DNA of 64,000 nt from assembly GCF_045037415.1 (NCBI RefSeq), contig NZ_CP173438.1; one strand, written 5' to 3'. This document shows positions 17,013-60,950 of this stretch, piece by piece (position 1 is the stretch's first letter; each line of letters begins with the position of its first letter). The translations under genes and the position numbers were made by a program. The notes under the pieces were generated by a model. That model saw nothing but the letters and a program-made list of their open reading frames with translations. It had not been told where the DNA came from and ran no database searches. This DNA comes from Escherichia coli (GTDB taxonomy: Bacteria; Pseudomonadota; Gammaproteobacteria; Enterobacterales; Enterobacteriaceae).

Positions 17013-17056
17013 CTGCTTCCTGTTATGACGTGAAATTTTCGGTAAAACGCCTTCCC

Positions 17057-18565
<1,509 letters not shown>

Positions 18566-38569: not shown

Positions 38570-39262
38570 ATGCCACATCACATTGTTATTGTTGAAGATG
38601 AGCCGGTTACCCAGGCGCGATTACAATCTTACTTCACTCAGGAGGGGTATACCGTTTCCGTTACGGCGAGCGGTGCCGGGCTGCGGGAAATTATGCAGAA
38701 TCAGCCGGTGGATTTGATTCTGCTGGATATCAATTTGCCCGATGAAAATGGCCTGATGTTAACCCGCGCCCTGCGAGAACGCTCAACGGTAGGGATTATT
38801 CTGGTTACCGGACGCAGCGATCGGATTGACCGTATTGTTGGGCTGGAAATGGGCGCAGACGATTACGTCACCAAACCGCTGGAGCTGCGCGAACTGGTGG
38901 TACGAGTGAAAAATTTGCTCTGGCGAATCGACCTCGCGCGACAGGCGCAACCGCACACTCAGGACAACTGCTATCGCTTTGCCGGTTATTGCCTGAATGT
39001 GTCGCGCCATACGCTGGAGCGGGATGGCGAGCCGATTAAACTGACCCGCGCAGAGTATGAAATGCTGGTGGCATTTGTGACTAATCCGGGCGAAATTCTC
39101 AGCCGTGAACGTCTGCTGCGTATGCTCTCTGCGCGTCGGGTGGAAAACCCTGACCTGCGCACCGTCGATGTGTTAATTCGTCGTTTACGCCATAAACTCA
39201 GTGCGGATTTACTGGTGACACAACATGGCGAAGGTTATTTCTTAGCCGCTGATGTGTGCTGA
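38570..39262 (+). CDS. torR: Response regulator TorR (OmpR family)
   Basis: 230-aa ORF MPHHIVIVEDEPVTQ…. Confidence 0.95.
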   Translation: MPHHIVIVEDEPVTQARLQSYFTQEGYTVSVTASGAGLREIMQNQPVDLILLDINLPDENGLMLTRALRERSTVGIILVTGRSDRIDRIVGLEMGADDYVTKPLELRELVVRVKNLLWRIDLARQAQPHTQDNCYRFAGYCLNVSRHTLERDGEPIKLTRAEYEMLVAFVTNPGEILSRERLLRMLSARRVENPDLRTVDVLIRRLRHKLSADLLVTQHGEGYFLAADVC

Positions 39263-40263
39263 TAAAAATAAACCGGACGAAATCCCCCTGGTGACAGCGA
39301 GCGGCGGATATGTTCGCGGTCGGCATTTTTCGGCGTCATGACTAAAATCGGTGGGCTGACATTATCAGACACCGATTGCCCCTGTAATTGCCTGATGGCC
39401 TGCTCAACCGCCAGTTCCCCTTGCCAGACCATTTGATCGCTGGCAGCCATAATCACTCTTCCCCGCTTCAACCCGCGATACACCTGATGTGAAAGATAAA
39501 ACGACACCACGGTAAGCGGCGTTTTCAGGTTACGCCCTTCCCCCATTGCCGCCTCTGCCGCAATGGCCGTTCCGGCAACGACGTCGATTTCTGGATGGCG
39601 TTCCAGCATCTCCTGCAACAGGTTACGCTGGATTTCAATATCGTTATCACCGAGCGCAATATCAACAATACGCACCGGGCTTCCGGCAATGGCTGCGCGA
39701 AAACCCTCTACCATCTCCTTACTGCCCCCGGCGTTATCGGGGCCGGGCATCAACAGCACGTTCAGTGGTTTACCGTGCGCCCATTGCACCAGATATCGCC
39801 CTGGTTGATAGCCCATCTGAAACCAGGGCACACCAACGCGGCTTTTCACGTGGGGAGCATCAATAGCATTTACCAGTTCGATCACCGGCAGATTTGCTAC
39901 CTGCTTTTGCAGATCGGGAAATGACGTCGTGCTACTACCGAGCAAAATGGCCTCTGCGCCCCACTGTTTACACTGGTCGATTTGTGCTTGCTGGGTAGCC
40001 AACTGGCTGTAGCCGCCTGCCTCCAGCACTTTTAAATCCACACCGTAGCGGCGAGCAGCCTCCTGCATACCATAGTTCAACGATAACCAGTATGAATCTT
40101 TCAGGCTGGGATAAAGCGCGCACAGTTTCCATGCGCGTTTGGCTTTAAGCGGCGTAGAGGCTTGCACCGTGAAATGCTGCGCATCATGCCAGCGCAACAG
40201 GTTATCAGCCGAAAATGCCGATAACATGAAAAGGGAAAGAAGTAAAAATAGCAGTACGCGCAT
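39235..40263 (-). CDS. torT: Periplasmic TMAO-binding protein TorT
   Basis: 342-aa ORF with signal peptide; 3' end overlaps torR 3' end (convergent). Confidence 0.9.
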
Positions 40264-40345: not shown

Positions 40346-43078
40346 GTGAATTTAACCCTGACCCGAAGACTCTGGATGGGCTTTGCCCTGATGGCGCTGT
40401 TAACCCTGACCAGTACCCTGGTGGGATGGTACAACCTGCGCTTTATCAGCCAGGTGGAAAAAGACAACACTCAGGCATTGATTCCTACCATGAATATGGC
40501 GCGCCAGTTGAGCGAAGCCAGCGCCTGGGAACTTTTCGCCGCGCAGAACCTGACCAGTGCCGATAACGAAAAGATGTGGCAGGCGCAGGGGCGAATGCTC
40601 ACCGCACAAAGTCTGAAGATTAATGCGTTGCTGCAAGCGTTACGGGAACAAGGTTTTGACACCACCGCTATTGAACAACAGGAGCAGGAGATCTCCCGTT
40701 CGTTACGTCAGCAAGGGGAACTGGTGGGGCAGCGTTTGCAACTTCGCCAGCAACAACAGCAACTCAGTCAGCAGATAGTCGCCGCCGCCGATGAAATCGC
40801 ACGCCTGGCGCAAGGTCAGGCGAATAATGCGGCAACCTCCGCCGGAGCGACCCAGGCCGGGATTTACGATTTGATCGAACAACATCAGCGTCAAGCCGCA
40901 GAAAGTGCACTCGATCGGCTGATTGATATCGATCTTGAGTATGTTAACCAGATGAATGAACTGCGCCTTAGCGCCCTGCGGGTGCAGCAAATGGTGATGA
41001 ATCTGGGGCTGGAACAGATCCAGAAAAATGCGCCAACGCTGGAAAAGCAGCTCAATAATGCGGTGAAAATTCTGCAACGTCGGCAAATACGCATTGAAGA
41101 TCCGGGTGTTCGTACTCAGGTAGCAACAACGTTAACTACCGTTAGCCAATATAGCGATTTGCTGGCGCTGTATCAGCAGGACAGTGAAATCAGCAATCAC
41201 CTGCAAACTCTCGCCCAAAATAACATCGCCCAATTCGCGCAGTTTAGTAGCGAAGTCAGTCAGCTGGTCGACACCATTGAGCTGCGTAATCAGCACGGGC
41301 TGGCTCATCTGGAAAAAGCCAGTGCACGCGGGCAATACAGCCTGTTATTGCTGGGATTAGTTTCTCTTTGCGCACTGATTCTGATCCTCTGGCGCGTGGT
41401 TTATCGCTCAGTCACGCGCCCTCTTGCAGAACAAACGCAGGCGCTGCAACGCTTGCTGGATGGTGATATCGACTCCCCTTTCCCGGAAACCGCTGGCGTA
41501 CGGGAACTGGATACCATCGGGCGGCTGATGGATGCGTTTCGCAGCAGTGTTCATGCACTGAATCGCCACCGCGAACAGCTGGCGGCGCAGGTCAAAGCGC
41601 GTACAGCTGAATTGCAGGAACTGGTGATAGAACACCGACAGGCACGGGCGGAAGCAGAAAAAGCCAGCCAGGCAAAATCGGCGTTTCTGGCGGCGATGAG
41701 CCATGAGATCCGCACACCGCTGTACGGTATTCTCGGCACCGCACAGCTGCTGGCAGATAACCCCGCACTTAACGCCCAGCGCGATGATTTGCGGGCGATT
41801 ACCGACTCTGGTGAATCGTTGCTGACCATCCTCAACGATATTCTCGATTATTCGGCTATCGAAGCAGGCGGCAAGAATGTTTCGGTCAGCGATGAACCCT
41901 TTGAACCGCGCCCGCTGCTGGAAAGTACCCTGCAATTAATGAGCGGAAGGGTGAAAGGTCGCCCGATTCGCCTGGCAACAGAAATTGCCGACGATGTACC
42001 GACTGCGTTAATGGGCGATCCGCGGCGTATTCGTCAGGTCATTACCAACCTGTTGAGCAACGCCCTGCGTTTCACCGACGAAGGGCACATTATTCTGCGT
42101 AGTCGCATTGATGGCGAACAATGGCTGGTCGAAGTGGAAGACAGCGGCTGCGGTATTGATCCCGCGAAACTGGCTGAAATCTTCCAGCCATTTGTTCAGG
42201 TTAGCGGCAAACGCGGCGGCACCGGGCTGGGGCTGACTATCAGTAGCCGTCTGGCCCAGGCGATGGGCGGCGAATTGAGCGCCACCAGCACGCCGGAGGT
42301 TGGAAGCTGTTTTTGTTTACGCGTGCCGTTACGTGTTGCCACTGCACCCGTGCCAAAAACAGTCAATCAGGCGGTGCGTCTGGACGGTTTACGTTTGCTG
42401 TTAATTGAAGATAACCCGCTAACCCAGCGGATTACCGTTGAGATGTTGAACAGCAGTGGGGCGCAGGTCGTTGCCGTAGGAAATGCCGCGCAGGCTTTAG
42501 AGACACTGCAAAATAGTGAACCGTTTGCTGCCGCACTGGTGGATTTTGATCTACCGGATATCGACGGCATTACGCTTGCCCGACAACTGGCACAGCAATA
42601 TCCGTCGCTGGTTTTGATTGGCTTTAGCGCCCATGTCATTGACGAAACACTGCGACAGCGTACCAGTTCGCTATTTCGCGGGATTATCCCTAAACCGGTG
42701 CCGCGTGAAGTGCTCGGTCAATTACTGGCGCACTATCTCCAACTGCAAGTCAATAACGATCAACCACTGGATGTATCGCAACTCAATGAAGATGCTCATT
42801 TAATGGGGGCGGAGAAGATCCACGAATGGCTGATATTATTTAAACAACATGCCCTGCCGCTTCTCGATGAAATCGACATTGCCCGCGCCAGTCAGGATAA
42901 CGAGAAAATAAAGCGTGCCGCACATCAGCTAAAAAGCAGTTGCTCGAGTCTGGGAATGCGTAGCGCCAGCCAGCAATGCGCACAACTGGAGCAGCAGCCA
43001 TTATCTGCCCCCCTTCCACACGAAGAAATTACACGCAGTGTTGCCGCTCTGGAAGCATGGTTAATAAGAAAGACCTGA
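40346..43078 (+). CDS. torS: Hybrid sensor kinase TorS; start uncertain
   Basis: ORF track starts at 40139 and overlaps torT; start set at GTG 40346 ([13 protein letters not shown]…); alternative ATG at 40376; HAMP, HisKA/ATPase, receiver and HPt domains. Confidence 0.85.
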
Positions 43079-43160
43079 ACGCGATTTGAATCAATATCAG
43101 CCAGTTAAGAACAACTAGAATAGTGGCATTTGGTATGCAACTTAACGGACTGGCAAAATC

Positions 43161-45347: not shown

Positions 45348-45560
45348 TTGTCCCGTAAAATGACAGGAATTGTCAAAACCTTTGATCGCAAAAGCGGCAA
45401 AGGATTCATTATCCCCTCCGACGGTCGTAAAGAAGTCCAGGTCCATATTTCCGCATTCACTCCCCGCGACGCAGAAGTGCTTATACCAGGATTACGCGTG
45501 GAATTTTGCCGCGTAAATGGCCTGCGTGGACCAACAGCGGCAAATGTTTATTTGTCTTGA
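45348..45560 (+). CDS. cspH: CspA-family protein CspH; start uncertain
   Basis: ORF-track start is TTG at 45348 ([12 protein letters not shown]…); alternative ATG at 45360. Confidence 0.8.
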
Positions 45561-46858
45561 TGGAGAGCGCACGCTGGTATGCGTACTTCATTCACGATTT
45601 GCGTAAAACCGGCCAACGAACACATGCCCTGCGCATTTCGCTCTTCACATCCTGCCAGGGTCAGTTTCACCTCTCCGGGCGGCGTATTTAATGACAGCGG
45701 CGTTTTATCACGCATCTGCTGTAAAGTCTGGAAGACCAGCGAAACCTGAATCCACTGGCTGTTATCGCTGAGCCGACGCCAGCGTTCAAACACCAGTTCA
45801 CCCCCTGGCGGCGTGTTATCCGGCTGACCTGGAAGCGTCCAGTTGAGCTCCAGTGCGCCGCCGAGATTTGCCAGATTAGTATCGTGTCCGGCGATAAACA
45901 GCACTGAAGTGGGTAATGTCACACCATACACCTGTTTTTGCGGTGGATGGGGCGCCAACGCTGTCATGATCAAATCCAATAACGGGGTGGCGCGACTGCG
46001 GGCAACCTCTGGTGTGCGTTGCAGCAAATAAAACTGCGCGTTATGTAGACTTAGCAAGGTGTTCCACTGGTGTGAATCGGTGATCCTTCCCCACCCCGGC
46101 TCCGGCATTCCCTGTGCTTGTTGCAGGAGAAATATCTCCGTCAGCATTGATGCGAGGCTTACCGCACCGGTTAATGAGACATTGTCGGCGCTCACCTTGA
46201 GTTCCGATGGTAATGCCTGCGTTAATGAACAGCTTTCGTCCTGTTTCTCACGGTTAAGGCACAAGTTTGATTGCGGGAAATTAAGCACCCGTTCCAGTTC
46301 GCGAAACGCCGTTTGCCGATGCCCGGTAAAGTCAGCAATTGACCCTCCTGCCCTACTGAGGATCGCGTCAGTCACGTTCGCGTTATCCAGTTGGCAAACG
46401 CCAGTTTTTAGAGGATTAAATAACGGATCGGGACTGGACGTATCTGCCTGGGTATGTACGGTTATTGCACAGTCAGGTGCCAGCCCGGCGGCGAAGGCTT
46501 CGCCTGTTTTACGGGTACGTTCGTCGACATCAGCAATAATCGCGACCTGACCTGGCTGCGGGCAGCCCTCTTTTGCCAGCAATCCGTCGGCCACCAGACG
46601 CTGGCGTTGGTAATGTCCGAGATAAGCGATTAGCTCACCACCGCGCGGTGTCAGCCAACCCAGTTTTACCGGCCAGGTTGGCCATGCGTCAGGGGTGACA
46701 TCCTGCATCAGTTGCGTGGCCTTGGTTGGTGCACGCACACCGTGACGACTGACAATCACCACACTTTCCAGCTTCAGCTCCGGCTCACTCTGAGCGAATG
46801 CAGATTTCGGTGTTAACGGAATCAGAAGAGATAAGAATGGGATCAAGATCGCTTTCAT
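45548..46858 (-). CDS. appA: Periplasmic acid phosphatase/phytase AppA
   Basis: ORF 45548..46888; start set at ATG 46856-46858 ([12 protein letters not shown]…); RHGVRAP motif; 3' end overlaps cspH 3' end by 13 bp. Confidence 0.9.
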
Positions 46859-56810: not shown

Positions 56811-57140
56811 ATGCTGATCTTCGAAGGTAAAGAGATAGAAACGGATACCGAAGGCTATCTCAAAGAAAGCAGCCAGTGGAGTGAGCCGCTGGCGGTGGTG
56901 ATTGCAGAAAACGAAGGGATTACTCTGTCGCCAGAACACTGGGAAGTGGTGCGTTTTGTGCGTGATTTCTATCTGGAATTCAATACTTCTCCGGCGATTC
57001 GTATGCTGGTAAAAGCGATGGCGAATAAATTTGGCGAAGAGAAAGGCAATAGCCGCTATCTGTACCGACTGTTCCCGAAAGGTCCGGCAAAGCAAGCCAC
57101 CAAAATTGCTGGCCTGCCTAAACCGGTAAAATGCATTTAA
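56811..57140 (+). CDS. tusE: Sulfur-relay protein TusE (DsrC-like)
   Basis: 109-aa [22 protein letters not shown]…. Confidence 0.9.
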
Positions 57141-57415
57141 CGGATACGAAAATCCGTTAACTCCCCGGAGGGATGATGCGGCTCGCTGAGCACCCGTTCC
57201 ACACGCGCAGAACGCGGGCCGCCACTTTTTAACCACTGCATTAATTTTTCCACCTGCCCTTCTTCACCGCAGGCAACCACTTCCACGCTGCCATCGTCAA
57301 GATTTTTGGCGTACCCGGTTAGTCCCAGTTTTTTCGCTTCGTACTGCGTGGTGTAGCGGAATCCTACGCCCTGAACTCGCCCGTAAACCCAGGCAATTAT
57401 GCAGACTTTCGACAT
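57137..57415 (-). CDS. yccX: Acylphosphatase YccX
   Basis: ORF 57137..57628; start set at ATG 57413-57415 ([20 protein letters not shown]…), 92 aa; stop overlaps tusE stop by 4 bp. Confidence 0.85.
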
Positions 57416-57509
57416 TGCTGCTCTCCTTATCCTTAATGGACGCGTTGCAAATCCATGGAAAACTCCGGACAATGACGCCCATTTCTTTGCATCGACAGAA
57501 AAGTAAATT

Positions 57510-58700
57510 ATGAGTGTACGTTTAGTGTTAGCCAAAGGGCGCGAAAAATCATTACTTCGTCGCCATCCGTGGGTCTTTTCCGGGGCCGTTGCCCGCATGG
57601 AAGGTAAAGCCAGCCTCGGTGAAACCATCGATATTGTTGATCATCAGGGAAAATGGTTAGCACGCGGCGCTTATTCGCCAGCTTCGCAAATCCGGGCGCG
57701 CGTCTGGACGTTTGACCCGTCTGAGTCTATCGACATTGCTTTTTTTACCCGCCGTTTGCAGCAAGCACAAAAATGGCGTGACTGGCTGGCGCAAAAAGAT
57801 GGCCTCGACAGCTATCGTTTAATCGCCGGTGAATCTGATGGCCTGCCGGGTATTACTATCGATCGTTTCGGTAATTTTCTGGTGCTGCAATTGCTGAGTG
57901 CTGGCGCAGAGTATCAGCGCGCGGCATTAATTAGCGCCCTGCAAACGTTGTACCCGGAATGTGCCATTTACGATCGCAGCGACGTCGCGGTACGTAAAAA
58001 AGAAGGGATGGAGCTGACTCAGGGCCCCATCACCGGCGAGTTGCCGCCTGCCCTGCTGCCGATTGAAGAACACGGCATGAAACTGCTGGTGGATATTCAG
58101 CACGGGCACAAAACGGGCTACTACCTGGACCAGCGTGACAGCCGCCTGGCTACCCGCCGCTACGTCGAAAATAAACGCGTACTTAACTGTTTCTCCTATA
58201 CCGGTGGTTTCGCCGTATCGGCATTGATGGGCGGTTGCAGCCAGGTTGTCAGCGTTGATACCTCCCAGGAAGCGCTGGATATTGCACGGCAGAACGTTGA
58301 GCTGAACAAACTGGATCTGAGCAAGGCAGAGTTTGTCCGTGATGATGTCTTTAAATTGCTGCGTACTTATCGCGATCGCGGTGAAAAATTTGATGTTATC
58401 GTGATGGACCCGCCGAAGTTTGTTGAGAATAAAAGCCAGTTGATGGGCGCGTGCCGTGGCTATAAAGACATCAACATGCTGGCGATTCAGTTGCTGAATG
58501 AAGGCGGTGTTCTCCTGACTTTCTCCTGTTCCGGTCTGATGACCAGCGATTTATTTCAGAAAATCATCGCGGATGCCGCAATTGATGCCGGTCGTGATGT
58601 ACAATTTATAGAGCAGTTCCGTCAGGCCGCCGATCATCCGGTGATCGCTACCTACCCGGAAGGGCTATATCTGAAAGGGTTTGCCTGTCGCGTCATGTAA
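57510..58700 (+). CDS. rlmI: 23S rRNA m5C1962 methyltransferase RlmI
   Basis: 396-aa [26 protein letters not shown]… with PUA and SAM-methyltransferase regions. Confidence 0.9.
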
Positions 58701-59075
<375 letters not shown>

Positions 59076-59088
59076 TTCTCATAAACAT

Positions 59089-59126
59089 ACCCGGAAGGTT
59101 TTCGCCTTCCGGGTATTTTTTATTTT
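59089..59126 (+). terminator. hspQ rho-independent terminator; T-run overlaps yccU stop
   Basis: Stem acccggaagg/ccttccgggt followed by ATTTTTTATTTT. Confidence 0.75.
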
Positions 59127-60928: not shown

Positions 60929-60950
60929 ACAGGTGGCAAACGCCACCTGT
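60929..60950. terminator. Bidirectional terminator between convergent mgsA and helD
   Basis: Perfect 9-bp stem acaggtggc/gccacctgt with AAAC loop, T-rich after on plus strand and AT-rich on minus. Confidence 0.6.

Follow-up and report, generated by a model that had tools for sequence, protein, structure and literature searches.

The genes tusE and yccX of Escherichia coli end on opposite strands within the same 4 bp. This arrangement is most likely a passive, frozen tail-to-tail overlap, in which the transcripts end inside the partner gene and no terminator is conserved. The overlap itself is real, ordinary and already known from annotation, RNA-seq and Term-seq, and the class to which it belongs has been described, together with the termination problem that it poses, since 2007. 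The present analysis adds that the overlap is frozen across the Enterobacteriaceae, with only doubly synonymous changes of the shared tetramer (79 of 81 loci), that yccX lost a Tyr codon in E. coli and E. albertii beside the intact overlap, and that the hairpin found at the junction in the DNA analysed here is a minority allele. The locus could be used as a small natural test case of how convergent transcripts end without intergenic space.

The overlap and its conservation

The window is a stretch of 64,000 nucleotides of E. coli DNA (contig NZ_CP173438.1, assembly GCF_045037415.1). From position 17054 to its end at 64000 it is colinear with strain SK1144 (NZ_AP018784.2) apart from 3 mismatches, so that RefSeq coordinates transfer directly to the window. 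The RefSeq annotation of SK1144 gives window-equivalent positions of 56811-57140 for tusE and 57137-57415 for yccX. At the edge of the colinear part, the IS1A copy that SK1144 carries between efeU and putP is missing in the window (17054-17062); the two BLAST segments overlap there by 9 bp, the length that a target-site duplication of IS1 would leave. The genes and the overlap are as follows.

56811..57140, + strand: tusE coding sequence, 109 aa, DsrC-family sulfur-relay protein (ORF list, RefSeq annotation, Pfam)
57137..57415, - strand: yccX coding sequence, 92 aa, acylphosphatase (RefSeq annotation, Pfam)
57137..57140, no strand assigned: TTAA holding both stop codons, 4-nt overlap of the coding sequences (sequence)

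The stop codon TAA of tusE occupies 57138-57140 and that of yccX, also TAA, is the reverse complement of 57137-57139, as read from the ORF list and the sequence. A first-pass annotation, made from the sequence alone, had placed the two stops within the same 4 bp; the ORF list and RefSeq bear this out, and the layout is the same in K-12 MG1655, where yccX lies at 1030064-1030342 (+), tusE at 1030339-1030668 (-) and the overlap at 1030339-1030342. With coding sequences on opposite strands and stop codons within one of the tetramers CTAA, TTAA, CTAG or TTAG, the pair belongs to the YTAR class.

Both overlapping reading frames are genuine protein-coding genes, with Pfam matches that reach the C-termini and orthologues at the loci of 80 species. 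TusE matches the DsrC family (PF04358) with E=4.5e-45 over residues 4-109 of 109, and YccX matches the Acylphosphatase family (PF00708) with E=5.6e-27 over residues 8-91 of 92. An annotation artefact, in which one of the genes ended earlier or was unreal, was considered and found no support. It is vanishingly improbable: stop codons are unambiguous, unlike start codons, the Pfam matches run from end to end, and both reading frames are kept together with their overlap in 79 of the 81 loci.

These loci come from a TusE scan with one genome per species, from which the 80 closest Enterobacteriaceae loci were taken (TusE identity of at least 84%); the window makes 81. The exact 4-nt convergent overlap is present in 79 of them, and the tetramer varies across the set only among TTAA, TTAG, CTAA and CTAG. 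Base 1 of the tetramer falls on the third position of the final Ile codon in tusE (ATT or ATC) and, on the other strand, pairs with base 3 of the yccX stop. Base 4 completes the tusE stop and pairs with the third base of the final yccX codon. All the changes seen are therefore silent in both genes. The sole loci that lack the overlap are those of Cedecea colo (L055:1801-1850), where a 7-nt tandem duplication of TATTTAG sets the stops 3 nt apart, and Entomohabitans teleogrylli (L052:1801-1850), where a 4-nt insertion leaves a gap of 0 with adjacent TAA and TCA stops.

Judged by this distribution, the overlap is old and inherited rather than a chance or strain-specific accident. Because both C-termini lie inside conserved domains, an insertion or deletion there would be likely to impair one or both proteins, and such constraint on the C-termini would be enough to explain the frozen arrangement.

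The C-terminus of YccX reads ...DFRIR* in E. coli and E. albertii and ...F(S/G)IRY* in all other sampled Enterobacteriaceae. A 3-nt deletion beside the overlap (window 57140-57145) took the terminal Tyr codon of yccX and left the overlap undisturbed; this loss in E. coli and E. albertii helped to create the palindrome at the junction that is described below. Frameshifted copies of tusE and yccX occur in a 27-kb record labelled as a plasmid (NZ_CP098186.1, 7733-7869; L088). Five places labelled as plasmid match the chromosomal segment of the window, and these may be mis-assemblies.

Transcript ends in K-12

Overlapping stop codons make each full-length mRNA antisense to the partner, so that any termination takes place inside the partner's coding sequence. 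For two overlapping genes it is physically impossible that both translatable mRNAs end before the partner gene. The first-pass annotation had reasoned in the same way, that each transcript must read antisense into the other gene unless it ends within coding sequence, and had proposed RNA-seq and Term-seq as the check. The logic is sound. Published K-12 data largely answer the question: the transcript from the tusE strand runs antisense into yccX, with a Term-seq end 86 nt inside that gene, in agreement with the convergent overlap seen by RNA-seq.

The Term-seq data of Adams et al. 2021 (PMC7815308, suppl. file 1) contain a tusE-strand 3' end, classed as "antisense yccX", at K-12 position 1030253 (LB, OD 0.4) and at 1030252 in a second condition. 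The caption of that file speaks of 40 bp upstream, whereas the sequence column holds 61 nt, in which the 3' end is preceded by 50 nt and followed by 10 nt; this register was verified on the SgrS terminator. By coordinates and alignment, K-12 1030253(-) corresponds to window 57226, which puts this end 86 nt downstream of the tusE stop and 66 nt downstream of the junction hairpin. All transcript data are from K-12, which carries the weak-hairpin allele. Two features follow from the transfer of this end to the window and from folding of the region.

57141..57226, + strand: putative 86-nt 3' extension of tusE, antisense to yccX codons (K-12 Term-seq end, transferred)
57178..57223, + strand: predicted GC-rich 9-bp stem GCGGCUCGC / GCGGGCCGC with a 27-nt loop (MFE folds)

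The mapped 3' end lies 3 nt downstream of the predicted stem (arms at 57178-57186 and 57215-57223), and the sequence that follows the stem is CACUUUUUAACC in the window and CACUCUUUAACC in K-12. By the predicted fold, the end at +86 would be compatible with weak intrinsic termination as well as with trimming by an exonuclease that halts at a stable stem.

Conserved RNA structure in the 3' extension of tusE was considered as a candidate and rejected, since RNAalifold on the 81-species alignment and counting of pairs found nothing conserved or covarying. The RNAalifold consensus has an energy of -0.62 kcal/mol and no compensatory pairs, which is essentially no structure. For the E. coli helices, the paired share of cells in the same alignment is 63.6%, as compared with 62.5% in shuffles. 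Taken singly, helix 1 reaches 48% and helix 2 reaches 62%, and RNAalifold predicts no such helix. Across genera, only the codon-invariant positions of the stem at 57178-57223 pair, and the third-codon positions are mostly unpaired.

At its read-count threshold, the table of Adams et al. lists no 3' end in any condition in the K-12 range 10303xx, and no 3' end of the yccX strand in this region. Their list of Rho termination regions (suppl. file 2) has no entry in K-12 1029700-1030699. The missing yccX-strand end and the missing Rho region may both simply reflect thresholds, and the absence of a listed Rho region is no proof of Rho-independence. The TERMITe supplements make no mention of tusE or yccX. 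ExcludonFinder (NAR 2025, PMC12288877) counts yccX-tusE, as well as torT-torR, with the 165 convergent transcript overlaps that it detects in at least 50% of a set of 58 RNA-seq samples from MG1655. In a review of RyhB MAPS data, yccX/tusE figures as one of the tail-to-tail pairs, with possible co-purification of the mRNAs via overlapping UTRs.

On the larger scale, yccX is the sole opposite-strand gene within the co-directional run yccA-tusE-(yccX)-rlmI-hspQ (window 56811-59075). Read-through from tusE would reach rlmI in the sense direction; the tusE-yccX-rlmI trio is absent from the three noncontiguous operons that ExcludonFinder lists.

The hairpin at the junction

The first-pass annotation had also stated that no terminator intervenes between the two genes. 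This holds in that the intergenic space is zero, but in the strain analysed here a terminator-like, perfect 9-bp hairpin is situated at the junction itself.

57137..57160, no strand assigned: perfect 9-bp inverted repeat TTAACGGAT-N6-ATCCGTTAA (repeat finding)
57127..57136, - strand: weak U-rich tail AUGCAUUUUA after the hairpin, antisense to the last tusE codons (consensus terminator scan)

The repeat begins exactly at the overlap and coincides with the last 7 sense codons of yccX and its stop (...LTDFRIR*). The hairpin can form in either transcript, with folding energies of -10.2 kcal/mol (+) and -10.9 kcal/mol (-) and z-scores of -2.9 and -2.6, respectively. AT pairs make up most of its stem, and GC pairs 3 of 9. 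A consensus scan finds the hairpin terminator-like on the - strand, with the tail ATGCATTTTA; the tail rule of the scan is 5 T in an 8-base window, which the yccX-strand AUGCAUUUUA passes. On the + strand the hairpin is followed by CUCCCCGGAG, which has no U-tract and is therefore no tail of an intrinsic terminator. In total the scan finds 3 sites in this region, no more than in shuffled sequence (2.8 +/- 2.0).

Perfect hairpins of at least 9 bp occur at 9 loci in the window, as compared with about 1.6 expected. When mapped onto the annotation, the other eight (window 601, 3852, 16986, 30839, 44250, 55861, 59089 and 60929) lie at the 3' ends of genes or tRNAs. They are GC-rich and terminator-like, most have T-rich tails, and several are found in the convergent gaps yccJ/agp, yccM/gnsA, hspQ/yccU and mgsA/helD. 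This enrichment at 3' ends makes a hairpin placed exactly on a convergent junction somewhat suspicious. The convergent gap cbpM/torD holds a tandem array (window 33878-34120) of 2.4 copies of a 101-bp unit with 91% matches; the unit contains REP-like palindromes (GCCTGATGCGACGC... and GCCGGATAAGGCG...).

Of 5426 complete E. coli genomes, 1180 (22%) carry the window allele of the hairpin. The K-12 allele, ATCGGTTAA, is present in 2755 of the 5426 and differs by a synonymous Thr codon (ACC vs ACG) that puts one mismatch into the stem. It folds with -4.1/-5.6 kcal/mol and a z-score of about 0 (+0.3 for -4.1), no better than shuffles, and a third allele, ATCGGCTAA, folds worse than that of K-12. 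A hairpin-forming element in the shared convergent region is thus present in the window allele and weak or absent in the K-12 allele. The junction hairpin is absent from other genera. Taken together, the polymorphism, this absence and the lack of a consensus structure argue against a selected element.

The reading that best accommodates these observations is that of a passive overlap. The two opposite-strand stop codons share a YTAR tetramer as an inherited member of the commonest overlap class. With both proteins functional to their last residues, insertions and deletions at the junction would probably be damaging, and only doubly silent changes occur. In K-12, transcripts from the tusE strand reach about 86 nt into yccX and stop shortly past the GC-rich stem, where the end could arise by weak intrinsic termination or by 3' trimming to that stem, and yccX transcripts must extend at least past their own stop codon into the 3' end of tusE. 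The two extensions would make the mRNAs complementary over roughly 100 nt at their 3' ends, and the published convergent excludon listing amounts to the same. The perfect hairpin of the window would be a lineage-specific by-product of the synonymous Thr codon ACG (vs ACC), and at most a weak yccX terminator.

Could the hairpin nevertheless be functional in the lineage of the window, either as a weak intrinsic terminator of yccX or as a pause site for collision-driven bidirectional termination? Its perfect 9-bp stem with a 6-nt loop, an energy of -10.9 kcal/mol and a z-score of -2.6 would suit such a role, as would its terminator-like score on the - strand and its position exactly at the convergent junction, given that the other eight perfect hairpins of the window are all at gene 3' ends; the collision model, moreover, requires a hairpin in the overlap region and needs no U-tract. 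Against this, the stem is AT-rich (3/9 GC), the + strand has no U-tract, and the tail on the - strand is just AUGCAUUUUA. The hairpin occurs in 22% of E. coli genomes and is broken in the K-12 and third alleles, and it is absent, with no covariation, in other genera. A terminating ribosome occupies and unwinds the last codons of its message, and the stem, which is made of the last codons of yccX, would probably be opened by it. The tusE-strand end mapped in K-12 is 66 nt downstream of the hairpin, with no yccX-strand end next to the hairpin in the list; the table of Adams et al. shows, for the K-12 allele, neither an RNA 3' end at the U-tract of the hairpin nor sharp 3' ends of both strands there. 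A functional hairpin is on balance unlikely. Improbable too is the evolutionary form of the idea, by which the single synonymous change ACC->ACG at 57155 would have given a derived lineage of E. coli, to which the window and about 22% of complete genomes belong, a working terminator hairpin or pause element exactly on the frozen 4-nt overlap. If this were true, the hairpin would shorten the tusE/yccX antisense overlap in that lineage relative to K-12, and the alleles would form a natural series for the birth of a terminator inside the last codons of a gene.

The overlap might instead be kept as a regulatory excludon, in which complementary 3' ends of about 100 nt bring about mutual antagonism through RNase III cleavage or transcriptional interference. 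The overlap of transcripts in most K-12 RNA-seq samples is consistent with this, as are the naming of the pair in the RyhB MAPS top list, where co-purification via overlapping UTRs may be indirect, and the conservation of the 4-nt overlap across the family. The last of these is, however, explained by constraint on the protein C-termini alone. ExcludonFinder reports coverage overlap only, and data on reciprocal expression or RNase III are not part of it for tusE/yccX; in the papers searched neither mutually exclusive expression nor RNase III processing of the overlap was found. Beyond the coding constraint there is no conserved RNA structure or sequence. The two genes serve tRNA thiolation and an acylphosphatase, between which we know of no functional link. 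A regulatory role is unlikely, and the passive, frozen overlap remains the preferred reading.

Comparison with other convergent pairs and known systems

Coding sequences overlap in 3 of the 11 convergent pairs in the window. The two besides tusE/yccX are given below.

39235..39262, no strand assigned: 28-bp convergent overlap of torR(+) and torT(-) (torR 38570-39262, torT 39235-40263)
45548..45560, no strand assigned: 13-bp convergent overlap of cspH(+) and appA(-) (cspH 45348-45560, appA 45548-46858)

The first-pass annotation had seen the same arrangement in all three. The other two are indeed convergent overlaps of coding sequences, but at 28 and 13 bp they are not of the 4-bp, stop-on-stop kind. 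The cspH/appA junction is lineage-specific: a 301-nt query across it (window 45548-45569) matches without a break in 1673 of 5426 E. coli genomes, and in the others the match splits at about query position 159-170. In K-12, other genes, which we take to be those of the gfc-etk region, lie between cspH and appA. The appA gene is annotated at 436 aa in the window. Close to torR/torT, torS (window 40346-43089) is a frameshifted pseudogene in the near-identical SK1144 annotation, and its long reading frame in the window ends at 43078 rather than 43089.

With canonical terminators of the window (such as 30839-30863 in yccJ/agp, 59089-59114 in hspQ/yccU and 60929-60950 in mgsA/helD) the tusE/yccX junction shares a perfect 9-bp stem-loop and its place between convergent genes. 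The canonical stems are intergenic, rich in GC and bordered by T-runs, whereas that of tusE/yccX is part of a coding sequence, consists mostly of AT pairs and is followed by a U-tail, and a weak one, on one strand only.

Ju and co-workers are said to have described in 2019, by SEnd-seq, overlapping bidirectional terminators at convergent gene pairs. In the collision model proposed for such sites (Liu lab, bioRxiv 10.1101/2022.10.23.513370; pair ynaJ-uspE), termination needs a hairpin in the overlap region and not a U-tract. Like the terminators of the ynaJ-uspE type, tusE/yccX is a convergent pair with a palindrome at the junction that can be folded in both transcripts. Unlike them, its hairpin is inside coding sequence and polymorphic, and the 3' end mapped on the tusE strand in K-12, instead of marking a shared boundary, falls 66 nt downstream of the hairpin. 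The locus resembles the collision-model terminators only superficially.

As for convergent excludons, yccX-tusE is itself on the published list (PMC12288877). That listing, however, denotes an overlap of RNA-seq coverage, whereas a functional excludon is defined by mutual repression and RNase III processing.

Convergent overlaps were surveyed by Lillo & Krakauer 2007 (Biol Direct 2:22, PMC2174442), who found 4 bp to be the modal overlap length and counted 58 convergent overlaps in E. coli. A Rho-independent terminator was predicted for only 23 of the 116 genes involved (20%), and the terminators of such genes must, as these authors stated, lie inside the partner's coding sequence. The tusE/yccX pair belongs to their 4-nt class (CTAA, TTAA, CTAG, TTAG) and does not differ from it in kind; across species it uses all four of the tetramers that the class permits.
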